DNA from: a virus
Length of the DNA: 64,000 bases
Virus record (IMG/VR): IMGVR_UViG_3300022752_000018
Span: 119,193 to 183,192 of that record
Direction: 5' to 3' (one strand)
The position numbers and the translations under genes were made by a program. The notes beneath the pieces were generated by a model. The model was not told the origin of the DNA. It was given only the letters and a program-made list of their open reading frames with translations, and searched no databases. Shown in pieces: positions 17,001 to 35,230 of this stretch (positions are counted from its first letter, which is position 1; each line of letters opens with the position of its first letter).

Positions 17001-17353
17001 AAATATTTTCTTTAGTTTATACTGGGGTAGATAGAGGATGGTGTTGGGACGAAGATAATTGGAAAGTGATTAATAGTACTTATACTGCTACTAATAAAGA
17101 CAAGCTTTTAATTAATAATTCATCCGCTTTAGTATCCAATGTTACAGTAAATTTACCAACTAATCCACAAATTGGTCATACTATTAGATTTATGGATCAA
17201 AATGGGTTAACAGTAGCTAAACCGTTAATTATTCAAAGAAACGGGGCTTTAATCAATGGTTCTAATACAGATCTTACTATAAACACTGCTGGGCGAGCAT
17301 TTGCTCTAGTATATACAGGTGCTACTAGGGGGTGGTGCTATGAAAACAATTAA
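14084..17353 (+). CDS. Tail fibre/baseplate protein, paralog of 12153
   Basis: Shared N-terminus 'LVGKNTPNYGEFINENFIKLLENFS...PLRGQIWYDT'; two tandem C-terminal '...IDTSSFNVTVTLP...GDTIHFAD...LVIDRN..KING...SLVYTG..RGWC' modules. Confidence 0.75.
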   Translation: MAYTVIKTDGTVLTDVLDNSIDRITTDLTLVGKNTPNYGEFINENFIKLLENFSSAQPPRAPLRGQIWYDTSENKLKLFDGIKFIEFWRPIVSATLPNLNVGDIWIDNNKRQLYFNDGQGNVLAGPLYTAQQGNTGHQVSTLEDINGVTHVIIKFKIGNTLMGVFSKTAFTPNYTLGEGRLLESEGYSGPVIIGFNPLSTNFKFNVTVKNAENLVTQFGTPINVDQFVKTTGNNNINGRLDITGNSDIDTEFSRPLILGSSGNLTIEIKNVLQSSTEIPPVKIKNQVTNQDLALIVKNSDDFQNAIYINATDSRVGIYNDDPLTTLDIEGDVNFRNNLVTNKESIDIFNTTAKTINLARQANNISIASTSGETVINNKIVAKKGILIETGNLDTSLTTFNLVNTAVQTLNLARAARTINIGAGPDGSGVVNFSNNVNIPGILSITGELTVDQLNFRNNQIRAVNNDLELFAGSDNDITLQNKTIGYEDLLLSKRLMFDGLGIIGVPSGFTREFQLLNNIVSDIAFGGDATTISIGSTIGTTNVKHNLQVFGDISIGGADSSPAIIESNGPLAHLYNVVAKEIFIGGQAKEINLFYEPQLLGNPSPSLGKSLNIYAADTYLEGDLTLLGGDIKVPPGVTITSLFNNYASRVTIGGDANLIELGGSGTTVRVGNNLKVGSVAGEIEFTSIVSSGNITRGQINVGATTAFFDFLPQNILNLEIAASADKIYIGRGTVAENEVGQWQPSVNTGSLKTNPPYIGSSQLPIVIMKENLLVRNRLLIPEVDKSGVGGAGVLYKNTYQELEASQSIRITGNALSVAGDIFVGNIIIGTDLNGTVRIPRLQTNVFVLTDEIISTESSIDILKTTVDQITIGGKANGKIILGGSTTSVEIPGFVKRTWKTVTTTRTAIAGDFLLIDTSSFNVTVTLPAVAELGDTIHFADKNGISSSRKLVIDRNDHKINGLESNLEITTANKIFSLVYTGVDRGWCWDEDNWKVINSTYTATNKDKLLINNSSALVSNVTVNLPTNPQIGHTIRFMDQNGLTVAKPLIIQRNGALINGSNTDLTINTAGRAFALVYTGATRGWCYENN

Positions 17354-17357
17354 TCGA

Positions 17358-17363
17358 TAAATA
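17358..17363 (+). promoter_or_regulatory. Late promoter core (gaTAAATA)
   Basis: In the 28-bp gap before the ORF at 17382, followed by the RBS-like GAAGGGG. Confidence 0.55.
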
Positions 17364-17381
17364 TAACGAAGGGGATCAAAT

Positions 17382-19253
17382 ATGCCATACAATATTAATA
17401 GATATAACGGGACACTAGCGACAGTGGTTGAGGATGGTACTGTCGATAATACCTTAGATATCAAACTTATTGGCAGAAATTATGCTGGTTACGGCGAAGT
17501 ACAAAATGAAAACATGGTTCATATGTTGGAAAATTTTGCCAGTCCTAGTGAACCCCCTAGAAGAATAACAGGCCAAGTATGGTATGATAGTGGAAATAAG
17601 AAATTAAAATTTTTTGACGGTACTAAATTTAAAACCAATAGTACTGCTGAAATCAGCATAACACAACCTAGTGGATTATCACAGGGAGACTTTTGGTTTA
17701 ATTCAGAGACTAATCAATTATATGTTTGGACAGGCAGTTCATTTATTTTAGTAGGTCCTCAGGCTGTTGAGAACGCAGGCACAACAGAATTAAAAAGTGT
17801 AAGTGTAGAGGATATTACAGGAACAACATACGCTATAGTTAGAGCCATTGTCAACAGTAAAACAATCTATATTATTAGCGCAAATGAATTTATCTTACCA
17901 GATAATACTATTTTAGGATTTAAGCTGATTAAACAGGGAATAACCTTAATTGATACTATGGCTGTATCCAGTTCTGATCCGTTATACGGTATAACAACTA
18001 CTCAACATAGATTTTGGGGAACTTCAAGTAGTAGTTTAGGATTGGTCACAGACAGTGGTAAAGTAGTGACTGCTGATCAATTAGTTAGCAGTGAAGATCC
18101 ACAATTTTCTGGATTAGTGGGCTATAGTGATCAAGGTTTTACATTAGGTAATCAAGACTCATTACAAGTCTATATTGATACTGAAGGTAATGCCTGTATC
18201 AGATCAATAAAATTAAACGGATTAATAAATTTTTATACACGGATAGCAACTAATGATGATAATAACGACAGGGCTCCAATGAAATTACAGGGTAATAATA
18301 TTTTACCTGGAGTTCCTCAAATTAGTAACTTAGGAGTATCAGATCAAAAATTTGCCAACGTGTATGCTGTCAATGTTTATGCAGCTCTTAAAGGGACAGC
18401 TGATAAAGCAGACGCTTTAAATGTAGGTGGCACATATGTAACTGCCGCACTAGGAGCCGCCGCAAATACTATAGTAGCCAGAGACAATCAGGCATCAATT
18501 ACGGCTCAAAAATTTAAGGGAACGGCTACCCTAGCTGAAGCTGTATACGGTGGAGTAGCAGGAGATATTGTTTATCAAACTGGACCAAATACAACAGGAT
18601 TTTTAAATCAAGGACAAGAAAATACAGTTTTATCTATTAATAATGATGGTAATTATAATTGGCTACCAATAGCTGACATTGCCAGTTCTGGACAAGCTGA
18701 TACAGTTTATATTACTAACGAAATATTAGAAGCTGATGAGCCCATTAAATATCCTACATTTGTGGAATCAAGTGGAGGGTATCATTCAATCAAAATTGAT
18801 ACTACAGGCCTAACATATAATGTAGAAACTAAAACATTAACAACAACGTTTTTTGATGGTGAAGCGACCAGTGCCTCTTATGCTGACTTGGCTGAAAAAT
18901 ATTTGGCTGATGCTGTATATGATATTGGAACGGTTATGGTAGTAGGTGGTACTAAAGAAGTTACACAGAGTAAATATGGAGATAGAGCTATTGGAGTAGT
19001 AAGTGGTAGCCCAGCATATCTAATGAATAAGGATTTGGCCAACGGCACTGTAATAGCATTGAAAGGAAGAGTTCCTGTTAAAATAGTAGGTAAGGTACAA
19101 AAAGGAGACAAAATTATTGCAACTAATAATGGTTGTGCTATGGCTGGTAAGTCAATGACAAAAATTTATTTAGACAGTGTTAACTTTTTTGCAATAGCTT
19201 TGGAATCCAGTGATGATCCTGAAATTAAATTAATAGAATGTGTTATTCTATAA
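17382..19253 (+). CDS. Tail fibre protein with a C-terminal chaperone/autocleavage-like (peptidase G2-type) domain
   Basis: Shared N-terminal domain; C-terminal 'ATSASYADLAEKY...GTVMVVGG...AIGVVS...IALKGRVPVKIVGKVQKGD'. Confidence 0.7.
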   Translation: MPYNINRYNGTLATVVEDGTVDNTLDIKLIGRNYAGYGEVQNENMVHMLENFASPSEPPRRITGQVWYDSGNKKLKFFDGTKFKTNSTAEISITQPSGLSQGDFWFNSETNQLYVWTGSSFILVGPQAVENAGTTELKSVSVEDITGTTYAIVRAIVNSKTIYIISANEFILPDNTILGFKLIKQGITLIDTMAVSSSDPLYGITTTQHRFWGTSSSSLGLVTDSGKVVTADQLVSSEDPQFSGLVGYSDQGFTLGNQDSLQVYIDTEGNACIRSIKLNGLINFYTRIATNDDNNDRAPMKLQGNNILPGVPQISNLGVSDQKFANVYAVNVYAALKGTADKADALNVGGTYVTAALGAAANTIVARDNQASITAQKFKGTATLAEAVYGGVAGDIVYQTGPNTTGFLNQGQENTVLSINNDGNYNWLPIADIASSGQADTVYITNEILEADEPIKYPTFVESSGGYHSIKIDTTGLTYNVETKTLTTTFFDGEATSASYADLAEKYLADAVYDIGTVMVVGGTKEVTQSKYGDRAIGVVSGSPAYLMNKDLANGTVIALKGRVPVKIVGKVQKGDKIIATNNGCAMAGKSMTKIYLDSVNFFAIALESSDDPEIKLIECVIL

Positions 19254-19265
19254 GGTAATATTTTT

Positions 19266-22200
19266 ATGTCAACTTCAACATCAATTCAAGCAAGTCAATT
19301 TAATGCTATACAAACTAGAGTAGCTAAGCTATTAGGTACTGGGACCGGAGATTTTGGCTATGGACAAACATTAATAAGCAGTCAAATATTACCAGGTCAG
19401 AAAATTACTGCTCAACCGTTGGTTAATATAAAAATTGACTTAGATAAAATTGCATTCCATCAGACTAATTTAGCAAGTGCTGCTCCTTCTGTACAGTTAG
19501 GACAATCAATTGCTGCCACAGACTGGACTAAGTATACCAATGAATTAGATTTATTAGAAGCAAATAGATTACAAATCAGTGAAACATCTGCTCAATCAAC
19601 TTGGACTGCTGACTATTCCACATTAGGGTTTTCTAATTGGAATAGTGTTAGAGCACACACTGTAACATTTGACTTTGGTAGTATTAATAATGCCAGATAT
19701 TTTTTTAATACTGGCGGAGAAATAAGGATAGTTCCCAGACATACAGGATTCACTAATGCTAGCTCAAAAGGAGGAGCATGGGCAGCTTTATTCAATAGAT
19801 TGGGCACAAAAGGGGTAAGATTACGTGCTAATGTTACTACCTGTCAAGATGGAACAGCGGAATCTAAAGGATACTATCAGCTTACTACTACGCCACTACA
19901 AATTTTTTCAATTGTAGATACTGGTCCATATGCTGGAAATGATTTTGTTGTTCTAGCCAGCGTGTCAAATCCTCTAAGAAGTCTTATTATAACATGTAGA
20001 TTTACAGACGACACTTTAGTCCCAGCTACAGATGAAGCTGTTGATGGTACTACAACAAGCAGTCTTGGTATACTAAGAGCAACTGGTAGCAGTGTCGGAA
20101 TTCTTACTAATCCTGTTGCTCAAACAAATTTAAATGTCCCTGGAAGTCCGCTCAGTGTAACAGCAACAATTACAGGTGGAACAACGGCTACAATTAACTA
20201 TCTACCGCCATCTAGTGATGGAGGTATTTCAATTTCCAGTTACACTGCTGTGAGTACACCCGATAATGTAACAGCAACCGTTAATAGGGAAGGTGGAGGT
20301 CAAATTTTTGTAACAGGGTTACGACCAGTAACAACCTATACTTTTGTTGTATTTGCTACAAATACTGTAGGTTCTGGACCAAATAGCTCACCTACGGCAT
20401 CAGTAACTACAACTACAGATGTACCTAGTAAACCATTATCTGTAACAGCGGTAAGCACCAGCTCAACTACGGCTACAATAACATATAGTGAGCCCAGCAG
20501 TAATGGTGGAACAACTATTATAAGTTATACAGCAATTAGCTCACCAGGTAATATTCAAGCAACAGTTACTAGATCTGGCGGGGGCACAATTAACGTAACA
20601 GGTTTATCCGTAGCAACAGCATACACTTTTAGAGTATATGCTACTAACTCAAGAGGTAATAGCGCACTTAGTGATCCTTCAGAACTGATAACTACATCTA
20701 GTGCTGAACCTATTATAGGATCTCCTTACGGTGGTGGGTATTTTGCGGGAGCAGTTAGTACTCCTGGAAACGATTTAGCAGACTATTTCCTCATTGTTTC
20801 ACCTGCATCTTTAGGTCAATCTTCTACTGGTTTACAATGGTCTAACACATCAACAGTTACATCATCTACAAGTGTAATTGATGGGCGTGCTAATTCTAAT
20901 TCTTTACCTTCAACACCACAAGCACCAGGTATTGGGCTACCTGCTGTAGTTTCTGGATCTTTAGGTACACAAATTGATATATCCTATACTGCACCTATAA
21001 ATAATGGTGGTAGCGCAATAACTAGTTACACTGCTATAAGCACACCTGATAATATTACCTCTACAGTAGGTCGTGCAGGAAGCGGCAATATTAGGGTCTC
21101 AAATTTAAGTCCTAATAAAACATACTCTTTTAAAGTTTATGCTACTAATGCTGTGGGTAATAGTCCATTAAGTATATCTACAGTAGAACTTCAAACACCA
21201 ATATTACCAAATAATACCTCTATACCATCAATAACAGGCACTGTTCTTTTAGGAAGTACATTAACTGTGGATATAGGAACTTGGACTGGAACACCTACAA
21301 TTACTTACTCATATCAATGGCAAAGAGGCACAGTTTCAATTACTGGGTCTACAAGTCAAACCTATACCATTGTTATAGCAGATGTAGGTAGCATATTAAG
21401 ATGTGTAATAACAGCATCTAATGCTGCGGGAACTAAGAGTGTAAACAGCGCATATACTATAGCAGTACCAGCTATAGCTCCTACAAACTCCAGCCTTCCA
21501 ACTATCAGTGGTACTGTTCAGGTTGGTCAAACTCTTACAGTATCTAATGGAGTTTGGTCTGGATCTACACCAATTACTTATGAATATCAATGGCAACGTG
21601 GAACTACAAATATTACTGGATCTACAAGCACTTCCTATACTATTGTTCTAACAGACGTAGGAAATAGGTTTAGGGTGAGAGTTCTTGCTCGAAATAGTGC
21701 AGGAGAAAATTTCGTGTTCACAGCTAGTACTGCCTTAGTCCCATCAGTAGCCCCAACTAATACTAGCTTACCAGTAATTACTGGAGATATTGCTGTAGGA
21801 TTAAGAATCAATGCCACAACTGGTGTTTGGACAGGGTCACCTACAATACAATACACTTATCAATGGCTGCGTAATTCTACTCCTATATCAGGATCAACCA
21901 CTAATGGTTATACAATTTTAGCGTCTGATGTAGGAAGTGTATTATCTGTAGAAGTTAAAGCAAGTAATAATGCAGGATTCGATATAGCAAGATCATTACC
22001 CACGGCAACTATACAATCTGCTAGTGCTCCAACAATAAGTGTATTACCTGCTATTACCGGTAATGCTGCTGTAGATCAAATTCTAAATGTTAGCAATGGT
22101 ACTTGGAGTGGAACACAACCCATCAATTATGCTTATCAGTGGTTGAGAGGCACTATATCAATAGTAGGTGCCACTTCAAATAATTATACAGTGACCATAG

Positions 22201-23951
22201 CAGACACTTTGAATACTATTGCTTGTAAAGTAACTGCATCTAATGTATCAGGTAGTCTTGCTGTAACATCAGCAAGCACAGGGCAAGTGCCAGCCGTATT
22301 GGCTACAAACGTTATTTTGCCGGTAATTACAGGCACTGTTGAAATAGGTAAAACTATTCAATCAAGTACAGGCACTTGGACTGGAACACCTACAATAACC
22401 TACTCATATCAATGGCAACGTGGTACAACTAATATTTCTGGGGCTAACACTAGTTCATATACAATACAATTAGCAGATAGTAATAGTCAATTAAGATGCC
22501 AGGTTATTGCGTCAAATCCAGCAGGGTTATCTCAAGCTGCTAATAGTCTAAGCACTATAACAGTTCCTCTACCTAGTGTACCAGTAAATTCAATTCCACC
22601 AAGTATAAGTGGTACTGTTAGTGTAGGCAATACTCTTACTACAAGTAATGGAACTTGGACTGGTACGGGTCCTTTCACTTACACATATCAATGGCAAAGT
22701 GGCAATGTGGATTTAGCTGGCAAAATAACCAATACTTACATAGTTGACTTGAGTGATGTAGGAAAAACTATTCGTGTAGTAGTAACTGCTACTAACGCAT
22801 CAGGAAACAGATCAAGTGCATCATTACCAACTGTTGTAGTACCACCAACTGCTCCTATTCTTGTTAGCAAACCTGTAGTTACAGGTATAGTTCAAATTGG
22901 TGAAACATTGACAACAACGGATGGATCATGGATTGGTAGTCCAACTATTACATACACCTATCAATGGTTGAGGGGTAATTCAGCTAACGCAATAAGTGGA
23001 GCAACTTCTTCTACATACAAGATCGTGACTCAAGACGCTAATAATCAATTATATGTTAGAGTAACTGCACGAAATAGCGTAGGATCCAGATCAGACACAT
23101 CACTTGGAACCAGTGTAGTACCATTAGCCACAGCACCAGTAAATGTAGTCGCTCCAACTATTACAGGCACAGTAGCTATAGGTGAAACACTGACAATTAA
23201 TTTAGGGACTTGGACTGGAACACCTACAATAAACTACACGTATCAGTGGCAACGTGGTTCAACCAATATTACAAATGCTACAGCAACTACCTATGTAATT
23301 GCAGGTGAGGATACTGGCTCTACTATACGCTGTAGGGTATCTGCTTCTAATAGTGCAGGTAATTCACAACCAGCGTTTACTCTTTCCACCCCACCAATAG
23401 CAGCAGCAGCTCCTACAAATAGAGTGTTACCTGTAATTACAGGTACTTTAGCTATAGGGCAGAATTTAACTGTGAATCCAGGAACTTGGATAGGTACAAC
23501 TCCTATAACTTACACTTATCAGTGGGAGCAAAATACAACTCCTATAGCGGGTGCTACTAACAATGTATATGTAATTAGATTAGCTGATAATAATAATAGT
23601 TTACGATGTGGAGTTACCGCATCTAACAGTGTAGGAAATCTTAAAGTATATTCTGAACCTACTAATGTAATATCTGCGGTAGCTCCTGCTAATACAGCAG
23701 AACCAACAATTTTAGGTATTCCTGCAGTGGGGCAAACATTATCAGTCAATGTTGGATCTTGGACTGGTACACAACCTATCACTTACCAATATCAATGGAA
23801 AAGAGGAACTTCAAATATCAATAATGCTATAGGCAGCACTTATACTGTAGTAAATGCTGATTTTGGTGAAGTTTTAAGCTGTAGAGTAATTGCTACAAAT
23901 GTTGTAGGATCAGCAGAAAGAACCTCTGCACCAACGGGAGTAGTTGGGTAA
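19266..23951 (+). CDS. Large virion fibre protein: structural N-domain, 3 FN3 domains, N-terminal half of DUF1566, 10 Ig-like repeats
   Basis: FN3 motifs ('YTFVVFATNTVGSGPNS'); ten ~95-aa repeats with 'GxWxGxxxIxYxYQWxRG...LRCxxTAxNxxG'; 'IGSPYGGGYFAG...YFLIVSP' segment at 20709-20912. Confidence 0.85.
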   Translation: MSTSTSIQASQFNAIQTRVAKLLGTGTGDFGYGQTLISSQILPGQKITAQPLVNIKIDLDKIAFHQTNLASAAPSVQLGQSIAATDWTKYTNELDLLEANRLQISETSAQSTWTADYSTLGFSNWNSVRAHTVTFDFGSINNARYFFNTGGEIRIVPRHTGFTNASSKGGAWAALFNRLGTKGVRLRANVTTCQDGTAESKGYYQLTTTPLQIFSIVDTGPYAGNDFVVLASVSNPLRSLIITCRFTDDTLVPATDEAVDGTTTSSLGILRATGSSVGILTNPVAQTNLNVPGSPLSVTATITGGTTATINYLPPSSDGGISISSYTAVSTPDNVTATVNREGGGQIFVTGLRPVTTYTFVVFATNTVGSGPNSSPTASVTTTTDVPSKPLSVTAVSTSSTTATITYSEPSSNGGTTIISYTAISSPGNIQATVTRSGGGTINVTGLSVATAYTFRVYATNSRGNSALSDPSELITTSSAEPIIGSPYGGGYFAGAVSTPGNDLADYFLIVSPASLGQSSTGLQWSNTSTVTSSTSVIDGRANSNSLPSTPQAPGIGLPAVVSGSLGTQIDISYTAPINNGGSAITSYTAISTPDNITSTVGRAGSGNIRVSNLSPNKTYSFKVYATNAVGNSPLSISTVELQTPILPNNTSIPSITGTVLLGSTLTVDIGTWTGTPTITYSYQWQRGTVSITGSTSQTYTIVIADVGSILRCVITASNAAGTKSVNSAYTIAVPAIAPTNSSLPTISGTVQVGQTLTVSNGVWSGSTPITYEYQWQRGTTNITGSTSTSYTIVLTDVGNRFRVRVLARNSAGENFVFTASTALVPSVAPTNTSLPVITGDIAVGLRINATTGVWTGSPTIQYTYQWLRNSTPISGSTTNGYTILASDVGSVLSVEVKASNNAGFDIARSLPTATIQSASAPTISVLPAITGNAAVDQILNVSNGTWSGTQPINYAYQWLRGTISIVGATSNNYTVTIADTLNTIACKVTASNVSGSLAVTSASTGQVPAVLATNVILPVITGTVEIGKTIQSSTGTWTGTPTITYSYQWQRGTTNISGANTSSYTIQLADSNSQLRCQVIASNPAGLSQAANSLSTITVPLPSVPVNSIPPSISGTVSVGNTLTTSNGTWTGTGPFTYTYQWQSGNVDLAGKITNTYIVDLSDVGKTIRVVVTATNASGNRSSASLPTVVVPPTAPILVSKPVVTGIVQIGETLTTTDGSWIGSPTITYTYQWLRGNSANAISGATSSTYKIVTQDANNQLYVRVTARNSVGSRSDTSLGTSVVPLATAPVNVVAPTITGTVAIGETLTINLGTWTGTPTINYTYQWQRGSTNITNATATTYVIAGEDTGSTIRCRVSASNSAGNSQPAFTLSTPPIAAAAPTNRVLPVITGTLAIGQNLTVNPGTWIGTTPITYTYQWEQNTTPIAGATNNVYVIRLADNNNSLRCGVTASNSVGNLKVYSEPTNVISAVAPANTAEPTILGIPAVGQTLSVNVGSWTGTQPITYQYQWKRGTSNINNAIGSTYTVVNADFGEVLSCRVIATNVVGSAERTSAPTGVVG

Positions 23952-23998
23952 AGATAACTTAAAACTTATGCCATAATGGTTAAAAAGGTTAAAAATGA

Positions 23999-24004
23999 TA
24001 AATA
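23999..24004 (+). promoter_or_regulatory. Late promoter core (gaTAAATA) for the 3732-aa gene
   Basis: In the 80-bp intergenic gap; RBS-like AAGGTAG precedes the ATG at 24032. Confidence 0.55.
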
Positions 24005-24031
24005 TCTTAGTTAACCAAAGGTAGAAAATCT

Positions 24032-27000
24032 ATGCCAGTTCCAAGTCAACCAACGATAGGCTTAGCCCAAGCAGTGGGAGCAACGAGCGCTTCCGTTAAT
24101 TTTACAGCACCAGCAGATACAGGCGGCTTAACAATTTTAAGCTATACCGCAACAGCAACACCTCTAACAACAGGTACAAATGTAACAGCTACCCTAAGCC
24201 AATCCGGTAGTGGAACAATTTTTATAACAGGGCTTACTCCGTCTACAGGTTATACTTTTACCATATATGCTACTAATGCTGATGGAAACTCTTTAAATAG
24301 TTCTAGCAGTAATAGTACAACTACTCTACCATCATTAGTTTTCCCAGCGGCTGAATTTTGTAATAATCTTGTAATAGGACCAAATGATGATTGGTACTTA
24401 CCTAGTAAAAATGAATTAGAAATAGCATATTATAACCTAAAACCTACTACTAGCAGTAACCAAACCTCATCAGGTATTGATCCTAATGCTGTGCCACCAA
24501 GATCAACAAATTATACAACATCTTTACCAGCTAGAACTAATAGTGCTACCTTTCAGTCTAGCGGCGCTGAAGCATTCAATTCTAATGCAGGTACATACTA
24601 TTGGACTAGTACTGAAACTGCTCCAGGAACAGCAATTGCTCAAACTTTTAACACTGGTGACCAATCGGCAAATAATAAAGTAAACACTGCTTTGGTTAGA
24701 GCTGTAAGAAGAGCACTTATCCCGGCAGGATTTACAGTGGCATCAGCTCCTACTTTAGGCACAGTTACATTATCAGGAAATACAGCTACTATTCCTTATA
24801 ATCCACCTTCTAGTAATGGTAATTGTGTAATAAGTGGTTATGAAGCAGTTTCTACAGTAAATTCCGCACTGAAAGGATCCTCAACAGGTCCAGCTGCTGG
24901 AAGCATTAGTATCAGTGGTCTAACATTAGGTGTAGCACACACATTCACTGTTAGGGCTAGAAATTTAATTGGTATAGGAGCAGCCAGCACACCTAGTAAC
25001 AGTGTAGTGCTTACCGCACCTGTGAACATAGGAACACCAACAGTATCAGGCACTGTTCAGATAGGACAATCAATCAGTGTAAGTAATGGTTCATGGTCGG
25101 GTACCCCAGTAATAACATTTACCTATCAATGGCAAAGAGGTTCAACTACTTCTTCTTTCACTGATATAACCAGTAATGGAATTGGCTCCACATATACTTT
25201 AGTCAATGCTGATTTTAATAACTTTTTACGCTGTAAAGTCACTGCCACAAATAGTGGTGGTGCCAGTTCTGAGTTCACAGCAGCAACTGATAAAGTTACA
25301 GCCTTACCACCATCTAATACTGGTCTTCCAATTATAAATGGTACAGCTATTTTTGGTAATACCCTTAATGTGACCAACGGAACTTGGGATGGCATACCAG
25401 CACCAGCATTTAGTTATCAATGGCAGCGAGGCGCAAATGTAAGTTCATTTGCTAATATCAGTGGTGCAACAAATTCATCTTATACTGTTGTAATGGATGA
25501 TACCTTAAACATATTACGCTGTATTGTCACAGCCACAAACGCTGGTGGTGCTGTACCACAAGCAACTAGTCAAATACCAAATACAGGCGTAATTCCAGCG
25601 GTACCTCCTGCTAACACTGCGGCACCTACTATCAGTGGTACAGTGTTCATTGGACAAACTCTCACTGTAAATGAAGGAACATGGACTGGTACAGCAACAA
25701 TTACTTACAGCTATCAATGGCAAAAGGGCACAACAGACTTATCAGGTGCTACAAATAAAACATATGTAATACAATTCTCTGATTATAATAATACATTACG
25801 TTGTATTGTAACTGCCAAAAATCCTGCAAATAATACCACAGGAGTAGCCGCCAACACAGTCAATACAATACTAGTACCACCAGCACCACCAGTTAATACA
25901 GTTGTACCATTAATCACTGGTACCGTAGCAGTAACAAATACACTAAGCTGTAGTCCAGGAACTTGGACTGGTACAGAAACAATCACATATTCGTATCAAT
26001 GGCAAAGAGGAACCAGTGATATATCTGGAGCCACTAATTCTAGTTATCAAGTTACGTTGACTGACGTTGGATCTACTTTGAGATGCGTAGTGACGGCAAG
26101 AAATCCAGCCACTTCAATAGGAGTAGCTAAAGAGAGCGCCAATACAATAGTAGTTCCTCCAATGGTTCCAAGAAATGATGCGGTACCAACTATCACTGTA
26201 TCTAATAATGGACTGTACGGTGCTGGGTTGTATGGAAGTACACTAACTGCTAGCACAGGTACATGGTTTGGTACATTACCTATAACCTACACTTATCAAT
26301 GGCAACGTGGTACAACTGATATTGTAGGTGCTACAAATTCTAATTATGTTATTCAAATAGATGATACCCTTAACACAGTAAGATGTGTGGTTAAGGCCAC
26401 CAATATAGCAGGAAATACATCATCTACATCAGCTAATTTCCCCGCAACAGGTACAATACCTTCCTTCGCCCCAATTAATTCAGTAACACCTACAATCACT
26501 GGCACTCCGGCAAATGGCAATGTGTTAACAGTGAATTCGGGTACATGGATCGGAACAGCACCAATTACTTACGAATATCAATGGCAAAGAGGAACAACTG
26601 ATATTCCTGGTGAAACTAATATAAATTATACAGTTGTGATTCCTGACACTTTGAACACACTACGTTGTAGAGTTACAGCTAAGAATGTGGCCAGTATAAA
26701 TGGTGTACAAGGATTCAGTGCTAATGTTCCAACTACTGGTGTTATTGCTGCTGTGGGCCCAAGTAATGTTGTAAGACCAAGTATATCAGGAGCAATTGAA
26801 ATCAATGGTGTATTGACAGCAGATCCAGGAACTTGGACTGGTACTGTTACTATTTTATATACCTATCAATGGAGAAAAGGAGCCCCAGGTGGTACATTAT
26901 TGCCAATAACAGGTGCTACAAATCCAACTTATACAATACAATTAGCTGATAAATTCAATGTAATTGATGTTGTGGTAACTGCAAGTAATCCTGGTGGATC

Positions 27001-30000
27001 AGCTTCAAGAGAAAGTTTATCTACCACAACTATACCAGATGCCTTCCCACCACAGAACGTTACGTTACCAGTAATTACAGGTACTGTAGCCTTTGGTGGA
27101 TCTGTGAGTGTTAGCAATGGAACTTGGTCTGGAACTACTCCTTTTACTTATTCATACCAATGGCAACGCGGAACAACTGATATTACAGGTGCTACAAATT
27201 CTAATTATGTTATCCAAGTAGATGATACCCTTAATACCATAAGATGTATAGTACGGGCTAGGAATGCTGGGTCCAGTACTGGAGTTACCGCTACTAGCCT
27301 TTCTGTACCGGGAACAGGTACAATTGCTGCTATAGCTCCTTTTAATACAGTTCCGCCTACGATCAGTGGAACAACAGCAATTTTAAGTACTTTAGAAGCC
27401 ATGCCAAATACTTGGGTTGGTAGTGGTACAATAACTTATAGCTATCAATGGTTTAAAGCACCTAGTGGTGGAGCATTGAGTCCAATTTCAGGAGCAACAA
27501 ATAAAACCTATCAAGTGGTAGCTGCTGATTATAATTCGAGTCTAGCGGTTACAGTGACAGCTAAAAACGTAGCTAATCCTACTACAGGCGTATCTGCCCA
27601 AACTATTCAAACAGTATTAGTACCACCATACAAGACAGTTTTTGATAGTCCTGGGCCTCAAATTACAGGTACAGTTGCCATAGGTCAAACACTAACTGTT
27701 GATTTAGGCACTTACTTAGGTGTTCCCACACCAACAATAACATATCAATGGCAACGTGGCACAAACAATATTTCAGGAGCAACTGGTTCATCATATACTG
27801 TAACTTCTGCTGATTATGCCCTTCAATTAAGATGTGTAGTTACTGCTAATAATGCTGGTGGAACAACCGTTGTTAATACTAACCAAACTGTACCAGTTCC
27901 ACCACAAGCTCCTACAGTATCAGCTATACCTACAATATCTGGAACAGTAGCCATATATCAACAGTTGACGTGCCTTCCAGGCACTTGGGTAGGGACCCCA
28001 ACCCCAACATATACCTATCAGTGGGCAGTTGGTGGAGTAAACCAAGGTACGGCAAGTACCTACACAGTAGATTTTAATGATTTTGATAAAACTATAACTT
28101 GTACAGTTACAGCCTCAAACTTAGCCGGTAGTGCTAGTTCAACAACAGCAGCGACCATTAAGGTACCAGGACTAACTCCAAGTCTTACGGCAGCTCCTAC
28201 TCTTACTGGGACAAACCAAGTATTTGAAACTTTAAATACAACTAGCGGAACATGGTTTGGTACCGCTACCATAGGCTACGCATATCAATGGCAAAGAAAC
28301 GGTGTAAATATAAACACTTTACCAAGTCCTAAAACTACACAAGGTACTTCAAATAGTTATACTCTTACAGCAGCTGATTATCAAGCAACAATTAGAGTGA
28401 TCATATATGCGTTCAATACAGGGGGTGAAACTAGCACTACTGTTACATTTAGTGGTCAGGTTTTAGGAAAAGCACCAATTATTACTGCTATTCCTACAAT
28501 ATCAGGTACAGTAGCCCCTGCTTCAACAATCACAGCATCAACTGGAACTTGGACTGCAGTTCCTGCTATAACATCTTACAGTTATCAGTGGAGAGCAGAT
28601 GGAGTCAATATTAGCGGTGCAACTTCTGCATCCTACACAGTTGCTCTAGCTGATATAGGTAAAAAATTATCATGTCTTGTAACAGCTACCAATTCAGTGG
28701 GAAGCATCGGTGAAAAAACAGCTGATACTATTACAGTTCCTAATGCCACTGCTCCATCCAATACCGCTGGACCAACTATTAGCGGATCATTTGTTTTAAA
28801 TGGAACTGTGACGGCTACGACAGGAAGTTGGAACGGCACACCACCTATTACTTATACCATACAATGGTATAGATCTCCTGCTGATGGATCAGGAGTCCTT
28901 GGCACTGGTAGTAACTACATCATAACTATGGCAGATACAAATCAAAAGATTTATGCTAGAGTAATAGCCAATAATCCTGGTGGAACTCAACAAGCTGATT
29001 CTAGTTTGAGTGGTACCATTCCTGCTGTTGCACCAACTAATACAGTGGCGCCAACCATAAGTGGAACAGCGGCTTATAATAATACCCTGTCAGTAACTAC
29101 TGGTACTTGGACTGGATCAACAGGAATCAATTACACTTATCAATGGCGTGTAGGTACAACAAATATCGCAGGAGCCACTGGTAGTTCATATACTTTAAAT
29201 TATGATCAAACTAATACCACAGTAAATGTACAAGTTACAGCTACAAATGCTGGTGGTTCTAACACAGCAACTACAACAAATTATCCAAGTAGTGGAGTGA
29301 TTCCTGCTATAGCACCAATAAACAGTGCCCCACCTACTTACGAAATTAGTCCAGATGCTACAACTTATACTGATTTTTCAGGTAGTTCTACAATAAGAGT
29401 AGGTGATGTAGTTAGAGTTAAATCACCTGGAACTTGGGTAGGGTCCCCAACGATAACCTTTAGCTATACTTGGGGAAATAGTGATGGCACAGCTATAAGT
29501 AGTCCATTTCCTAATGCCCTAATAGTACCTGATACAAGTTATGGAAAAACATTAGTAGGTAAGGTTACAGGTACAAATCCAGGAGGAAGCACTGTATATA
29601 GCACTACCCTAGTTACAGTAGTTAACCAACTTATCCGAGTTACAACTAATCCTGACATGCGTAAGTTGGTAAATAGTATTGAATATTTTATTACAAGTTT
29701 AAATGTAGGTGATGTAGTTCGTATTACATCTGGTGACAGGGCAGGTTTCCCAACACCAACAATATCTATGAAAATACAGGCTTTATTTAGTGGTGTATGG
29801 ACTGATATAGCCACTAATTTAAATAATGGTGCTTATTACACTATACCCTCTAATGCCTACAATACACAAGTTAGAGTCAGTGTTACAGCAACAAATGCTT
29901 TTGAAACTGTAACGAGAGAATTTAATCCTGGTGTTACCGTAGGTCCTCAAAACCTAGCAGTTGTTGTGGCCCCGAGTATAACATTGACCAGCGGAGCTTT

Positions 30001-33000
30001 AAGGCCTGGCGGAGTTTTATCATGGAATGCAGGTACTTATTCAGGAACACCGCAACCCAACACTTTCTCAGTAATACTTCAAAGATTAATCTCTGGTGTT
30101 AGTTCAGATATAGCGACCTATACAACTAGTACAGGTACTTATACTATAGTGAATGCTGATTATAATAGTACACTGAGAATAAAAGCAACGGTGGGTAACG
30201 GTGGTGTTACCCCAAGTATCACCAATGATAGCCAATATACTAATAATATTGGACCTTTACCAATAGGAAATACTGCTCTACCAACTATAACCACTGGTAC
30301 TGCCACAACAGTTGCAGGTGATCAAAAATATTCAACTACTTATAACGTATCACTTGGATCATGGACAGGTTGGCCAGCTTTGAGCTATACTTTATCTTTA
30401 TATAGAGGAACAACTTTAATAACTAGTTCAACTGGGACTAGTTTATCATATCAATTAACAGCTAGTGATTATCAACAAACTCATTATGCCACAGTTAAAG
30501 CTACAAACGCTGCCGATAGCACAGGGGTAACTGCTACTTCAGCTACCACTAGTGCATTTAACACAACAGTTAGTTATACAGGCAGCAATCCTTCGATTAC
30601 AGCCAGTGGGTTTGATCCTAGTTCAATCTTAAGAGATGGACAGGTAATAAGAGTTGACCAACCTCTGTATACCAAAATACCCGCACCCACAGTAACATAT
30701 CAATGGCGTAGAGGTACAACAAATATATCAGGAGCCACAGGAAGCTCATATACAGTAACAGCCAGTGACATAGGATCTGCAATAAATTGTGTAGTTACTT
30801 ATTCAGGTACACCTACAGAAACACGTACTACAGGTAACACAGCCACTGTTCAACCTGCGCTAGTTGCCCCTAGTTGGACATCAACCCCTGATACGCCCAC
30901 TGGCCTTACGGTTCAAAATACTATTACACTACCTACATATACAGCTAGTGGTAACCCAACACCTACAATAACAACTACATGGCAAAGAGCAGAAGCGGCT
31001 ACACCAACTAGTTTTAGTAATGTATCAGGTTCTAGTGTAACTTTGGTGACAGCAGATTATGGAAGATACTATAGAATCAGTGCTACAGCCTCCAATAGTC
31101 AAGGCTCTATATCTTACACGTCAACTTCACGCCAAATCGGAGCTAAACTAGCTCAACCAGATGCCTTCACTATGAGCTCAGACATAGCAGTGCCTGATAT
31201 AAATAGTTCCACAGCCAGCTTAACATTATCATATTCTGCTAACGCTGCTAAACTGAATGATCCAACTCCTGCCACATATACTGAAACTACGACTGTTAGT
31301 TTACATAACTATGATGATAATAACGCACAAGGACTTGGTTCATTAGTACAATCATGGTCACCGTCGATTCGTTCAAATATCACTAGTATGACCCCTAATA
31401 CTTGGAGTTTAATAGTTAGTCCTGCTCATTACGGTAAAGTTTTAAAGTTCGTTACCTCATGGACAACTGGCTACGGCGTTGTAGGTGGTAGTGGTACAAC
31501 AACTTTAGTAACAAATAGAATTGTTCATGGCCCTGCTCCTACAGCAACAATGGGTTGGTCTACTCCAATTATAATAAGAGTTGGTGACCCAGCTCCAGTA
31601 TGGTATGCTGTAATCTCATATTATCCACCACAATACGGTGCTGTTGAAACTAAGTTTTTTGAAAGTAAAACAATTGCTGCGACCACTTGGACTGTAAGAA
31701 ATAATACCAACACTTTAGCAATTACAGATGCGGATATAGGATTGCAACTTAGAGGTAGGATAACATTAACATTGCCTGCAATGACCTATAAGGCTATGAA
31801 TTATTCAACTGGGCAGGTAAGTTCAACCACTAGCACTGCACCCGCATGGAATGTAGAAGGTATAACTCAGACTGTTTCTGTGTTTGATAAGGCTATTTCA
31901 ACTGCAGGATTTACAAAACCTACAATCTCAGGGAATTACCTTGCAGGTAGTGTTCATACAATCAATGCAGGAACAATTCCCAGTTATTGGCATACGATGA
32001 CACTATTTTTAGATATGTCTAATGGGACGACTATTACTGTAGGTAGCGCAAATAGTGGCGGACAATCTAGTATTACAATGAATTGGACTGCTGTTGCAGG
32101 CACTATAAGTACTATAAGAGCTGTTTGGTATAACAAGGGTGGAGAAGGATGGGCCAACAGTAATAATATAAATCAAGTTATCATCACAGCCACAGCACCA
32201 GGTGCACCAGGGGTATCTATATATATAGATATGAATTGGCCTGGTGCAGAGGGACGACCAACCTTCGTAGGAACAATCACAGCACCTTCAAGTAACGGTG
32301 GCGCCGCAATTACTTCGTATAAATGTGACCTATATAAGAATTCAGGAACATATGTTTCTACCCAATCGACTACTGGCCTTTCTTTTGCAAACGCTGGGCC
32401 TTTTGACAGAGTAACTCCATATTATTTTATCGTATATGCCATAAATATCGCGGGTACAGGCCCAGGCACAACAAGTAATACAGTCACAACTCCTGCCACA
32501 ATGCCAAGTCTACCCACAAATGTCACAGTGTCGTCGATTACAGATTCTTCTTGTACAGTTAGTTGGACAGCCAGCAGTGACACTGGAGGAAAACCTGTAA
32601 CATATAACGCAACAATTAAATTAGCATCAAATGGTCAAAATGTAGTCGGAAACGATACAACGGGAACATCAATAAGTCTATCAGGACTAAGTAGAACCAC
32701 ACAATATTATGCTATAGTTTTTCCTCGTAATGAAAATAATTTAAATTACCTGATTGGTGCTACATCGGCAAACTTTACCACTGCTGCCATAGTACCAAGA
32801 GCACCAGTAGTAACAGTGTCAGGAGCCACAGCAAGTTCTTATGTAGCATCATGGACATTAGCTGATACTGGTGGAAGTGCTATTACAGGATATAACATAC
32901 AAAATAGATCTGGTGGTGTTAATGTAGGAGGAAGTTTAACTGTAGCTGCTAATATTACAAGTGTAACAATATCCGGTCTCGGTGCTAACACAACCTATAC

Positions 33001-35230
33001 AGCTAGAGTATACGCTATAAATGCTATAGGTAATGGAGTAATAGGTGAGTCATCAGGTATAACTACAACAGGAACTGCACCGGCACAGATAACAAGTTTC
33101 ACTGCGGACCGTTCTACAGTTATTCCTACTAGTGGTGTTTTAGTATGGACAGCTCCTTCAAATGGTGGATCAGCTATAACTAAATATAGAATCAATATCA
33201 GCCCAGCAAATACAGCAGGTCAAACTTTTGTAGAAGTGGCTGATTCATCAGCCACGGTAACTTATTCACTAATGTCCCTAACGGCTGGAACTACTTATAC
33301 AGTAAGTGTAGCGGCGGTGAATGCTATTGGAACTGGTACAGCTAGTGCCAATAAAACATTCAAACCTGGATTGGCGCCGGCAACAAATAGTTTGGTAATT
33401 ACACCGATATTTGGTCACACAAATAATGTTAAGATTACTAGATTAAGTTGGACAAATATAATAGCTGGGTATCCAGCTACTAGCCATACTTTAAACGGAC
33501 CAGGATTTTCTACAAATCAAAACTATACTGGTGCTGCAACCACGGTAGACAGTGCTGCTCTTACTATAGCAAATGGATCCAGTATAACTTACAGTGTAAC
33601 GTCCAATAGTGATGTTCCCAATACTTTACTATCGACATTTCAAGTATCTACCATTTACACATTACCACCAGAAGCACCAACAGCATTAAGTGTATCTGTG
33701 AGTAATACTGTAGGCACAGCAACTTTAAGTTGGACAGCACCAGCTAATAATGGATCACCACTTACAGGCTACGATGTTGAGATATTAAACGCATCCAATG
33801 TAGTTCTTGGTTCCTTTAGTGCTGCTCTAGCTGCTAATGCTACAAGTCATACATTCGTATTAGGTTGGCAAAGTGCTGCCACAGTTTATAATCCACGTAT
33901 AAGAGCAAAAAATAGCTCACCAGGACTAAGATCAGATGTTAATGTAGCTGGCCTTGGACCTTGGGCTTCAACATCTTATACTGCAACAACTATACCAGGT
34001 GCTCCAGGAGCAGTTACAGCCACCGCGACTAGCTCAACAACTGTTAGCGTCACATGGTCAGCAGCTTCTAATAACGGTGGAAGTGCTATTACAGGATATA
34101 GAGTATATTGGGACGTTCTCTATAGGTCTTCTTTCCTGACCAGCGCCACTACAACTTCCTATACAGTCACTGGACTTAGTCCTGGGTCAGAAAATTTAAC
34201 TTTTGGCGTTGAGGCTGTAAACAGACATGGCGGCGGTACTATTACCAGTAGCGGATTTGTAAATATGCCATTAGAAAGAAAATCAGTTACAATCAACATT
34301 AGCACAAGTCAAAACAATTATGTTTTAGATACATCGAAAGTGACAGGATATATAACCGGTAAAACAGATGTGACAGTAAATATAGGGCTTGTTAATATAG
34401 GCTCTAGCTCTACAGGAGAACCAGCTTTTAAAGTTACAGGCTTCAATAACGGGGATACTATTGTTATTAATAATGGTGGAAGCATCGGTGGCGCAGGTGG
34501 TGCAGGGGGGACAGGCGGCGGCGTTACAATGTATTTGCCATATAGTTGGCTAGGTGGTGGCGACGCTCAATATACTTTTACAGCAGGTGGTAATGGCGAA
34601 AATGGTGGAATAGGTATGGCAGTGTACAACACATCGTCTGGTGTCACTTGGAGACCTGTAATAAATAACTCCGGATATATAATGGGTGGCGGCGCTGGCG
34701 GTGGTGGCGGTGCTGGCGTGGGAACGGGTCCAATAGGCCTCAAAGCACCTACTTATTATTCCGCTTTTGGTGGCGGAGGTGGCGGAGGTGGTCGTGGAGG
34801 CCAAGGTTTAGCTACAGGTAATGTAGGTGTGGGTGGTGGTGGTGCGGGTGGTGCGGGTGGTACTGCCAGCTGGTATGGTAGGTCTTCGACATATTCAGGT
34901 GCCTACACAGGACCAGCAGGTACAGCTGGGAGTACTTCCCCCCCAACAGACGTTGGGGGAGCAGGTGGTATCAGCGCCAATCCAAATCCACCAGATAATG
35001 TTAATGGCTATAACAACAGTGGTGGAGCTGGCAGCGGATTTCATTATCTAAACCAATACGCTACTCCTGCTTACCCTGGTAAAGCTTTCAAAGGTACTCC
35101 TATAATTGGGACTGGCAGTATTAGCATAGGTACCGCTGGTCTTGCTGGCACTAATGGTGCATATATTACAGGAAAAGTGACTGTAGCAACTAACACTGGT
35201 TTCCTATTGGGTGTGGATGGAAGAATATAA
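24032..35230 (+). CDS. Giant adhesin/fibre protein (3732 aa): FN3, C-terminal half of DUF1566, FN3, ~21 Ig-like repeats, ~7 FN3, Gly-rich gp38-like tip
   Basis: 'PAAEFCNNL...DWYLPSKNELE...YWTSTE...VRAVRR' near the N-terminus; Ig-like repeats that degenerate toward the C-terminus; terminal 'INNGGSIGGAGGAGG...INNSGYIMGGGAGGGGG' polyglycine segments. Confidence 0.85.
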   Translation: MPVPSQPTIGLAQAVGATSASVNFTAPADTGGLTILSYTATATPLTTGTNVTATLSQSGSGTIFITGLTPSTGYTFTIYATNADGNSLNSSSSNSTTTLPSLVFPAAEFCNNLVIGPNDDWYLPSKNELEIAYYNLKPTTSSNQTSSGIDPNAVPPRSTNYTTSLPARTNSATFQSSGAEAFNSNAGTYYWTSTETAPGTAIAQTFNTGDQSANNKVNTALVRAVRRALIPAGFTVASAPTLGTVTLSGNTATIPYNPPSSNGNCVISGYEAVSTVNSALKGSSTGPAAGSISISGLTLGVAHTFTVRARNLIGIGAASTPSNSVVLTAPVNIGTPTVSGTVQIGQSISVSNGSWSGTPVITFTYQWQRGSTTSSFTDITSNGIGSTYTLVNADFNNFLRCKVTATNSGGASSEFTAATDKVTALPPSNTGLPIINGTAIFGNTLNVTNGTWDGIPAPAFSYQWQRGANVSSFANISGATNSSYTVVMDDTLNILRCIVTATNAGGAVPQATSQIPNTGVIPAVPPANTAAPTISGTVFIGQTLTVNEGTWTGTATITYSYQWQKGTTDLSGATNKTYVIQFSDYNNTLRCIVTAKNPANNTTGVAANTVNTILVPPAPPVNTVVPLITGTVAVTNTLSCSPGTWTGTETITYSYQWQRGTSDISGATNSSYQVTLTDVGSTLRCVVTARNPATSIGVAKESANTIVVPPMVPRNDAVPTITVSNNGLYGAGLYGSTLTASTGTWFGTLPITYTYQWQRGTTDIVGATNSNYVIQIDDTLNTVRCVVKATNIAGNTSSTSANFPATGTIPSFAPINSVTPTITGTPANGNVLTVNSGTWIGTAPITYEYQWQRGTTDIPGETNINYTVVIPDTLNTLRCRVTAKNVASINGVQGFSANVPTTGVIAAVGPSNVVRPSISGAIEINGVLTADPGTWTGTVTILYTYQWRKGAPGGTLLPITGATNPTYTIQLADKFNVIDVVVTASNPGGSASRESLSTTTIPDAFPPQNVTLPVITGTVAFGGSVSVSNGTWSGTTPFTYSYQWQRGTTDITGATNSNYVIQVDDTLNTIRCIVRARNAGSSTGVTATSLSVPGTGTIAAIAPFNTVPPTISGTTAILSTLEAMPNTWVGSGTITYSYQWFKAPSGGALSPISGATNKTYQVVAADYNSSLAVTVTAKNVANPTTGVSAQTIQTVLVPPYKTVFDSPGPQITGTVAIGQTLTVDLGTYLGVPTPTITYQWQRGTNNISGATGSSYTVTSADYALQLRCVVTANNAGGTTVVNTNQTVPVPPQAPTVSAIPTISGTVAIYQQLTCLPGTWVGTPTPTYTYQWAVGGVNQGTASTYTVDFNDFDKTITCTVTASNLAGSASSTTAATIKVPGLTPSLTAAPTLTGTNQVFETLNTTSGTWFGTATIGYAYQWQRNGVNINTLPSPKTTQGTSNSYTLTAADYQATIRVIIYAFNTGGETSTTVTFSGQVLGKAPIITAIPTISGTVAPASTITASTGTWTAVPAITSYSYQWRADGVNISGATSASYTVALADIGKKLSCLVTATNSVGSIGEKTADTITVPNATAPSNTAGPTISGSFVLNGTVTATTGSWNGTPPITYTIQWYRSPADGSGVLGTGSNYIITMADTNQKIYARVIANNPGGTQQADSSLSGTIPAVAPTNTVAPTISGTAAYNNTLSVTTGTWTGSTGINYTYQWRVGTTNIAGATGSSYTLNYDQTNTTVNVQVTATNAGGSNTATTTNYPSSGVIPAIAPINSAPPTYEISPDATTYTDFSGSSTIRVGDVVRVKSPGTWVGSPTITFSYTWGNSDGTAISSPFPNALIVPDTSYGKTLVGKVTGTNPGGSTVYSTTLVTVVNQLIRVTTNPDMRKLVNSIEYFITSLNVGDVVRITSGDRAGFPTPTISMKIQALFSGVWTDIATNLNNGAYYTIPSNAYNTQVRVSVTATNAFETVTREFNPGVTVGPQNLAVVVAPSITLTSGALRPGGVLSWNAGTYSGTPQPNTFSVILQRLISGVSSDIATYTTSTGTYTIVNADYNSTLRIKATVGNGGVTPSITNDSQYTNNIGPLPIGNTALPTITTGTATTVAGDQKYSTTYNVSLGSWTGWPALSYTLSLYRGTTLITSSTGTSLSYQLTASDYQQTHYATVKATNAADSTGVTATSATTSAFNTTVSYTGSNPSITASGFDPSSILRDGQVIRVDQPLYTKIPAPTVTYQWRRGTTNISGATGSSYTVTASDIGSAINCVVTYSGTPTETRTTGNTATVQPALVAPSWTSTPDTPTGLTVQNTITLPTYTASGNPTPTITTTWQRAEAATPTSFSNVSGSSVTLVTADYGRYYRISATASNSQGSISYTSTSRQIGAKLAQPDAFTMSSDIAVPDINSSTASLTLSYSANAAKLNDPTPATYTETTTVSLHNYDDNNAQGLGSLVQSWSPSIRSNITSMTPNTWSLIVSPAHYGKVLKFVTSWTTGYGVVGGSGTTTLVTNRIVHGPAPTATMGWSTPIIIRVGDPAPVWYAVISYYPPQYGAVETKFFESKTIAATTWTVRNNTNTLAITDADIGLQLRGRITLTLPAMTYKAMNYSTGQVSSTTSTAPAWNVEGITQTVSVFDKAISTAGFTKPTISGNYLAGSVHTINAGTIPSYWHTMTLFLDMSNGTTITVGSANSGGQSSITMNWTAVAGTISTIRAVWYNKGGEGWANSNNINQVIITATAPGAPGVSIYIDMNWPGAEGRPTFVGTITAPSSNGGAAITSYKCDLYKNSGTYVSTQSTTGLSFANAGPFDRVTPYYFIVYAINIAGTGPGTTSNTVTTPATMPSLPTNVTVSSITDSSCTVSWTASSDTGGKPVTYNATIKLASNGQNVVGNDTTGTSISLSGLSRTTQYYAIVFPRNENNLNYLIGATSANFTTAAIVPRAPVVTVSGATASSYVASWTLADTGGSAITGYNIQNRSGGVNVGGSLTVAANITSVTISGLGANTTYTARVYAINAIGNGVIGESSGITTTGTAPAQITSFTADRSTVIPTSGVLVWTAPSNGGSAITKYRINISPANTAGQTFVEVADSSATVTYSLMSLTAGTTYTVSVAAVNAIGTGTASANKTFKPGLAPATNSLVITPIFGHTNNVKITRLSWTNIIAGYPATSHTLNGPGFSTNQNYTGAATTVDSAALTIANGSSITYSVTSNSDVPNTLLSTFQVSTIYTLPPEAPTALSVSVSNTVGTATLSWTAPANNGSPLTGYDVEILNASNVVLGSFSAALAANATSHTFVLGWQSAATVYNPRIRAKNSSPGLRSDVNVAGLGPWASTSYTATTIPGAPGAVTATATSSTTVSVTWSAASNNGGSAITGYRVYWDVLYRSSFLTSATTTSYTVTGLSPGSENLTFGVEAVNRHGGGTITSSGFVNMPLERKSVTINISTSQNNYVLDTSKVTGYITGKTDVTVNIGLVNIGSSSTGEPAFKVTGFNNGDTIVINNGGSIGGAGGAGGTGGGVTMYLPYSWLGGGDAQYTFTAGGNGENGGIGMAVYNTSSGVTWRPVINNSGYIMGGGAGGGGGAGVGTGPIGLKAPTYYSAFGGGGGGGGRGGQGLATGNVGVGGGGAGGAGGTASWYGRSSTYSGAYTGPAGTAGSTSPPTDVGGAGGISANPNPPDNVNGYNNSGGAGSGFHYLNQYATPAYPGKAFKGTPIIGTGSISIGTAGLAGTNGAYITGKVTVATNTGFLLGVDGRI

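Follow-up and report, generated by a model that had tools for sequence, protein, structure and literature searches.

Fold complementation between chains is familiar from the donor-strand complementation of chaperone-usher pili and from split inteins, and branched phage fibres are familiar from the anchor-branch receptor-binding protein systems of Klebsiella phages. Both fold complementation of this kind and gene fission within a domain are known principles. The DUF1566 (Lcl_C) domain was linked in phages, in our full-text literature searches, only to diversity-generating retroelements, for which DUF1566 is a known target class. In bacteria, the C-terminal domain of the Legionella pneumophila protein Lcl has a C-type-lectin-like fold without the Ca and carbohydrate motifs, binds glycosaminoglycans and trimerises, and its conserved DUF1566 residues lie mostly in the core (PMC11162425). 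Here we describe a 64,000-nucleotide stretch of viral DNA (hereafter the window), the final 64 kb of the 183-kb IMG/VR record IMGVR_UViG_3300022752_000018 (positions 119,193 to 183,192; the record is about 52% complete). On sequence evidence, two separately translated neighbouring genes of its fibre module, gene 1 and gene 2, encode one phage-type DUF1566/Lcl_C domain in two complementary pieces, henceforth the N-half and the C-half.

The two genes lie head to tail on the + strand with a short spacer between them. Gene 1 consists of an N-terminal domain, two FN3 domains (FN3a and FN3b), the N-half, a third FN3 domain (FN3c) and 10 Ig-like repeats; gene 2 starts with an FN3 domain (FN3A), followed by the C-half, a further FN3 domain (FN3B), 21 Ig-like repeats, more FN3 and a Gly-rich C-terminal region. 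The gene 1 modules were defined by Pfam fn3 and IG_AIR9 matches, and the Ig-like repeats of both genes were counted with jackhmmer. The split had been proposed in a first-pass annotation made from the letters of the window, whose quoted peptides and coordinates were exact when compared again with the sequence and which had correctly described both halves as free of frameshifts and stops, the two reading frames being open throughout.

The Pfam model of the domain (PF07603, Lcl_C; model length 117, gathering cut-off 34.9 bits) matches gene 2 above the cut-off at amino acids (aa) 105–226, over profile positions 26–117. The score is 39.6 bits for the C-half alone, 36.2 bits for the first 289 aa of gene 2 and 35.3 bits in a genome-wide scan, and it falls to 31.1 bits when the domain is searched in a 1000-aa slice of gene 2. 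The N-half alone has no match to Pfam, so that of the two partial Pfam matches predicted by the first-pass annotation only the one in gene 2 was obtained, and the complete model is covered in no single polypeptide of the pair. In intact relatives the Lcl_C match spans positions 7 or 11 to 117 and begins at the Trp strand. As this strand is here found in gene 1, the break falls inside the domain as Pfam defines it.

A search with the C-half recovered 19 intact proteins (199–226 aa, 45–60% identical to the C-half), the N-terminal parts of which clearly resemble the gene 1 segment. We used a family profile derived from 18 intact relatives of about 200 aa found with the C-half (alignment A1), which holds no information from gene 1. 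This profile matches gene 1 at aa 478–547 (positions 15–84, 58.5 bits, E 3.5e-20) and gene 2 at about aa 99–228 (positions 91–214, 172–180 bits), and these are its only two matches in the whole 183-kb record. The two halves joined in silico, scored with a local hidden Markov model only, give a single match over positions 20–213 with 247–249 bits; the pattern foreseen for complementary halves, i.e. non-overlapping partial matches and one full-length match on the join, was thus recovered with our own profile. Conversely, the N-half as a query against 5.8 billion sequences retrieved intact DUF1566 proteins with E values down to 1e-13; used as a query it also recovered 210 cluster representatives at E <= 1e-3. 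When 134 intact family domains were cut at the same site, the scores of both halves were within the range of these intact members and in this sense family-typical (40th percentile for the N-half, 95th for the C-half).

Both junctions carry the tripeptide LPS (TTACCTTCA at 20904–20912 and CTACCATCA at 24326–24334). Joining the halves with the two copies overlapped gives the same distance from DG to PAA as in short-loop family members such as P0016, P0025 and P0148, in agreement with the spacing that the first-pass annotation had given for intact phage proteins. The tripeptide itself, which it had also pointed out, is present at both breaks of the window (7 of 9 nt identical between the copies) and is not strictly kept, being TPS at the gene 2 junction of the related contig L023 described below. 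Given this replacement, and that [LVT]PS is the usual FN3 linker motif in these proteins, the repeat is better read as something that may be microhomology than as a signature of the split.

Table 1. Coordinates, within the window, of the two genes and of the segments relevant to the split domain.
Feature	Position	Strand	Details
Gene 1	19266..23951	+	1561 aa; open reading frame (open reading frame list, translation)
N-terminal domain of gene 1	19266..20135	+	aa 1–290; presumed attachment module
N-half of the DUF1566/Lcl_C-like domain	20697..20912	+	gene 1 aa 478–549; end ...DGRANSNSLPS
FN3c and 10 Ig-like repeats, gene 1	20913..23948	+	gene 1 share of the ~3.4-kb stretch separating the halves
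Intergenic region	23952..24031	+	80 nt, AT-rich
Gene 2	24032..35230	+	3732 aa; open reading frame (open reading frame list, translation)
FN3A, gene 2	24032..24325	+	gene 2 aa 1–98; Pfam fn3 residues 7–92
C-half of the split domain	24326..24715	+	gene 2 aa 99–228; LPSLVFPAAEFC...VRAVRRA

To place the break within the fold we relied on P0148, an intact relative, as modelled by AlphaFold (mean predicted local distance difference test score, pLDDT, 89.8). The best solved match of this model is the Lcl C-terminal domain (PDB 8Q4E; Foldseek E 9.4e-5), which aligns with Z 13.2 and a root-mean-square deviation of 3.2 Å over 126 of 131 residues, corresponding to model residues 12–211; the family profile also matches Lcl at the sequence level (E 3.4e-7), and ordinary C-type-lectin-like domains align over model residues ~25–211. 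The N-half, made of three beta strands and one helix, corresponds in the model to the three strands and helix 78–84, while the C-half comprises helix 91–97 onward, so that the break maps to the loop between these two helices (residues 85–90), the length of which is variable within the family. Since the alignments with Lcl and with C-type-lectin-like domains span both halves, these are parts of one fold and not two domains, and by the model of P0148 both belong to a single C-type-lectin-like fold.

The same split is present in a related phage. L023, an independent contig from a different sample, was reached through P0033, a 1561-aa protein 79% identical over aa 385–645, and is the one close relative located. 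Its gene order equals that of the window (1089 aa, 619 aa, 1561 aa and then at least 3217 aa). The gene 1 ortholog, also 1561 aa long and 76.8% identical over the entire gene, has the N-half only and breaks at the same place; the gene 2 ortholog (at least 3217 aa, ending at the contig end) begins with FN3 followed by the C-half. Synonymous divergence (dS) between the window and L023 is about 1.1–1.5, i.e. saturated. Ratios of non-synonymous to synonymous divergence (dN/dS), at a dS of ~1.4 for the halves, come to 0.119 (N-half) and 0.103 (C-half) and do not exceed those of the adjoining FN3 and Ig modules; the halves of the two phages differ by one single-residue indel in total. The differences fall preferentially in columns that are variable in the family (permutation test: N-half, p = 0.027; C-half, p < 5e-5), which is to say that purifying selection is family-specific, and most of the near-invariant family residues are kept (8/9 in the N-half, 36/39 in the C-half). 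From the shared split and the purifying selection on both halves it follows that the split is older than the divergence of the two phages, and by the same comparison neither half has decayed. The picture of simple breakage that the first-pass annotation had set against its own proposal, with every relative intact and the halves under relaxed selection, is not the one found.

Gene 2 carries its own expression signals. The spacer contains a late-promoter-like motif, ATAAATAT, at 23998–24005, and a Shine-Dalgarno-like sequence, AAAGGTAG, about 8 nt before the gene 2 ATG, matching at the sequence level the late promoter and ribosome-binding site that had been attributed to this gene. Copies of ATAAATAT at 11516, 17357, 23998 and 35317 (+ strand) precede the starts at 11541, 17382, 24032 and 35339 by 23–35 nt, and only two further copies are found on the + strand of the window beyond these four structural-gene starts. 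The motif resembles the T4 late promoter TATAAATA. Gene 1 has no such motif upstream and begins 12 nt after the preceding gene, so that it is probably co-transcribed from 17357. Between the window and L023 the spacer is identical at 67/80 positions (39/40 over the last 40 nt), with both the promoter-like motif and the Shine-Dalgarno-like sequence conserved. In L023 the spacer after gene 1 (L023:10064–10139) also displays a perfect 9-bp inverted repeat, TTATGCCAT...ATGGCATAA, of which the window has a weaker copy and which could be a terminator hairpin; a scan for sigma-70 and terminator consensus sequences found no more sites than in shuffled sequence.

Among the 149 representatives found with the N-half nearly all have an intact domain, which is frequently repeated in tandem or preceded by an FN3, Ig or Calx-beta module. 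A different arrangement was found in P0210 (L034 1765–2433), a complete 222-aa gene on a contig seen in 2 samples, which overlaps the stop of a tail-fibre-like gene and has a small membrane protein downstream. Its order is the family leader, the C-half (profile 86–216), a 9-aa linker (SPAPPSPPT), the N-half (profile 16–85) and the stop, and judged by this order P0210 is a natural circular permutant whose new termini fall in the very loop that is split in the window (profile 85/86). The permutation shows that chain continuity at the break loop is dispensable, and the 9-residue linker that the native N and C termini are close enough to be bridged. Two other proteins are worth describing. P0305 (191 aa, on an 820-bp contig of NCBI GCA_041447075.1) has an N-half ending in ...DGAANTAAM, at the same boundary as in the window, followed by heptad-like coiled-coil sequence where the C-half would stand; this may represent another protein with the N-half alone, unless the short contig is chimeric. 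P0028 (L024:6273–11192) is a 1639-aa FN3-rich protein with two DUF1566-like domains (aa 564–727 and 1466–1638), to each of which the family profile aligns as two separate segments, and it adjoins a gene with a Por_Secre_tail (type IX secretion system) signal, from which it seems that the combination of FN3 and DUF1566 is also used in a bacterial surface protein.

Among isolate phages the C-half matched eight Pseudomonas phage records only, all of them intact small proteins, and neither a megablast of 19266–25000 nor a tblastn of the N-half gave any match. A search of viral contigs with gene 2 aa 1–240 returned, in other contigs, only intact family members. We also considered the C-half as a target of a diversity-generating retroelement. 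Its DNA (24326–24730) is single-copy in the 183-kb record, where the best other match is 29 nt long (E 0.03); no template-like second copy was detected, a reverse transcriptase was not searched for, and this explanation is unsupported.

On balance, we think it somewhat more likely than not, from the sequences and the model of P0148, that the split goes back to an old insertion into a permissive loop and that the halves now reassemble in trans as a joint holding the 3732-aa fibre. The N-half and the C-half would fold together and rebuild the lectin-like domain, and this domain would form a non-covalent four-way joint tying the distal fibre encoded by gene 2 to the 1561-aa gene 1 protein. FN3b and FN3B would leave the joint from the pole of the native termini, and FN3c and FN3A from the split loop. 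The through path would then lead from the anchor domain through FN3, the joint and FN3 again to the 21 Ig repeats and the adhesin tip, and two side arms, formed by gene 1 with its 10-Ig tail and by gene 2 with FN3A, would emerge from the split loop. That the result is a self-assembling four-way joint within a branched giant fibre is a more tentative proposal, about which we are slightly more doubtful than confident. Reassembly in trans is favoured because a half is expected to keep the core residues and the site-by-site constraints of the family only if its native environment remains, and because gene 2, which opens at an FN3 linker motif (MPVPSQP), offers close to its N-terminus no non-repeat module besides the C-half; the structural N-terminal domain of gene 1 is indeed missing from gene 2, as had been claimed. 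The location of the break in a loop and the existence of a circular permutant at the same site strengthen the case.

Several points weigh against this interpretation. Support for reassembly is indirect, and the conservation of the halves rests on a single pair of genomes with saturated dS. The C-half amounts to ~78% of the Pfam Lcl_C model, and the strands of Lcl N-terminal to the DUF1566 region can be removed on paper with the trimer contacts kept (PMC11162425), so that the C-half might fold without the N-half. The anchoring role of the gene 1 N-terminal domain is only presumed, this domain having no known fold or family, and in a record that is about half complete another partner half may be encoded elsewhere in the genome. 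Moreover, a search of viral and metagenome contigs with gene 1 aa 1–549 found no unsplit close relative, the matches being homologues of the N-terminal domain, ~25–37% identical and without DUF1566, which makes the insertion history a reconstruction.

The main rival, which we regard as rather unlikely, accepts the old insertion or fission and holds that the halves never meet, the C-half acting alone as a glycan-binding or oligomerising module of the fibre and the N-half serving as a small beta-sheet spacer that separates FN3 domains or in some other role. The score of the lone C-half above the Pfam threshold and the dispensable strands of Lcl both speak for it, as do P0305 and P0277, which look like an N-terminal piece of the domain followed by unrelated sequence, and the similar dN/dS of the flanking FN3 and Ig modules, given which purifying selection alone is no proof of a shared fold. 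However, near-invariant family residues have been retained in the N-half, among them those of the GGGYFAG motif, of the core Trp strand and of DGxxN, substitutions in the N-half avoid the columns conserved in the family, and its profile score is typical of intact members, while a lone C-half would be deprived of the N-terminal strands over which solved C-type-lectin-like domains and Lcl align; P0305, for its part, comes only from an 820-bp contig.

Two further explanations dispense with separate halves altogether. Read-through, ribosome hopping or removal of the spacer by splicing might yield one polypeptide from the two reading frames, the domain then carrying a loop insertion of ~1100 aa in cis. 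Gene 2 does begin exactly at an inter-FN3 linker motif, as if cut from a longer frame, and conservation of the spacer is very high in its 3' half. Against this, the spacer contains in-frame stops, its conserved part is explained by the ATAAATAT motif (common to three other gene starts) and the Shine-Dalgarno-like sequence, and no landing codon that would match GGG, the final sense codon of gene 1, precedes the gene 2 ATG. Relative to gene 1, the frame of gene 2 is offset by 2 in the window and by 1 in L023, the spacers being 80 and 76 nt long, respectively, and this difference argues that the genes are separate cistrons and makes a conserved read-through fusion unlikely; overall we consider joining in cis very improbable. 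Even less credible is an artefact of assembling the Ig and FN3 repeats, a possibility raised in the first-pass annotation. Repeats abound in the region, which was assembled from a metagenome, but the break points of both genes are in unique sequence, P0029 (from a 4,980-bp contig of a third assembly) has an identical junction from N-half to FN3, and the architecture is shared by L023, at ~23% protein divergence. Since the latter is an independent contig from another sample, misassembly can be excluded.

Regarding its origin, the split could be derived from a single ancestral fibre gene with the order N-terminal domain, FN3, FN3, DUF1566, FN3, Ig repeats and tip, into which ~3.4 kb would have been inserted at the surface loop between the two helices of the DUF1566 domain. 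Besides FN3c and 10 Ig repeats, the cargo would have brought the end of one gene (a stop codon) and the beginning of another, namely a promoter with a ribosome-binding site, an ATG and FN3A. When the stretch from FN3c to FN3A is taken out, what remains is precisely this order with an intact DUF1566 domain, and FN3-DUF1566 modules are found elsewhere (L071, P0166 and P0172). Insertion into the loop would be the simplest history, an in-frame insertion followed later by fission being the alternative. The FN3 domains are 34–58% identical to each other, and FN3A has 42–47% identity to those of gene 1. Divergence among the Ig repeats is deep, those of both genes interleaving on a poorly resolved tree with long branches, and the GC content, overall and at third codon positions (GC3), is the same in the FN3c/Ig stretch as in its flanks. 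The divergence of the FN3 domains and of the Ig repeats and the uniform base composition all indicate an old event, and they leave a recent duplication unsupported. The recent 3.4-kb insertion or duplication offered as an alternative in the first-pass annotation is also rejected on account of the same split in L023 and of the purifying selection on both halves, and an old insertion of about that size is the likely origin. The tree pairs the final Ig repeat of gene 1 (aa 1467–1561, 23667–23948) with the first of gene 2 (aa 326–423, 25007–25300) as sisters, with a support of 94/89 that is not decisive; this would fit a former neighbourhood of the gene 1 end and the gene 2 start. The top lists of intact relatives for either half overlap, P0013 being in both, and the scores are uncorrelated (Spearman 0.12), a common origin of both halves being plausible from these comparisons rather than shown.

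The genes upstream of gene 1 match PHROG families of tail fibres, tail-collar fibres and virion structural proteins, which places gene 1 and gene 2 in a fibre module. The N-terminal domain of gene 1 has no match to Pfam or PHROG families. Its AlphaFold model (pLDDT 85.9) has no match in the PDB, and in BFVD it matches three uncharacterised phage proteins (template modelling score, TM, ~0.8). Its homologues in viral and metagenome contigs (~25–37% identity; loci L005–L022 and L035–L069) are mostly stand-alone phage proteins of ~300 aa with invariant GYGQ and ARYFFN motifs; in L016 the homologue is fused to a 1616-aa protein. As the sole candidate in the pair, we infer this domain to be the attachment module. 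At the opposite end of the pair, the C-terminal ~340 aa of gene 2 (34199–35227 of the window) are Gly-rich, with runs such as GGAGGAGGTGG, and gave neither a Pfam match nor a PDB sequence match. Three successive fibre genes at 12153–19253 (643, 1089 and 623 aa) have in common a short N-terminal module (first ~50–85 aa), which corresponds to phrog_14394 in all three and to phrog_15511 in the 1089- and 623-aa genes, and is probably a common attachment peptide. This module is not found in genes 1 and 2.

If reassembly takes place, this virus joins two giant structural proteins by completing one small domain across chains, which would represent a new kind of fibre joint and a natural counterpart of engineered split-protein tags, arisen by insertion into a loop that is also permissive to circular permutation. 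A large insertion with a stop codon and a promoter would have been tolerated inside a domain, the fold closing around the break, and protein engineers could find in the halves an orthogonal split-domain pair ready for use. Should the halves not come together, the two genes still offer a clean, selection-tested example of persistent gene fission within a domain.

The closest counterparts of the split domain are the intact DUF1566 proteins of ~200–225 aa from phages and metagenomes (e.g. P0148, P0013, P0016, AUM59635.1 of Pseudomonas phage PMBT3 and gene 0072 of phage Medea1), 45–60% identical to the C-half and ~45–55% to the N-half, with which the pair shares the motifs GGGYFAG, LIVxP, the W strand, DGxxN, PAAxFC, DWYLP, NELE, YYNLKP, YWSSTE and VRAVRR. 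In P0166, P0172, P0159 and L071 the domain is fused after an FN3 or Ig-like repeat, as in the window. The intact proteins have one continuous domain, usually as the C-terminal part of a small protein, whereas that of the window is broken after DGxxNSxxL, distributed over two genes in the middle of giant proteins, and followed by FN3 after VRAVRR. Lcl, the nearest solved structure, is a bacterial collagen-like adhesin in which the domain is unbroken and the helix-loop-helix that carries the break loop in the phage domain is absent. P0210, a member of the same family, places its chain ends at the same loop and differs from the window in having both halves on one polypeptide, in swapped order, with no split into two genes. 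The principle proposed here resembles that of pili, inteins and the Klebsiella phage fibres, in that a fold completed by a piece from another chain would join two proteins and a proximal fibre protein would carry a distal one. Those systems make use of an Ig-fold strand, an intein or adapter domains, whereas the association of the halves is inferred here from sequence and model. We know of no described case in which a C-type-lectin-like domain is cut at about one third to two thirds to act as a fibre joint. Nor, to our knowledge, has a conserved and selection-maintained split of such a domain over two phage fibre genes, with a matching circular permutant, been described.

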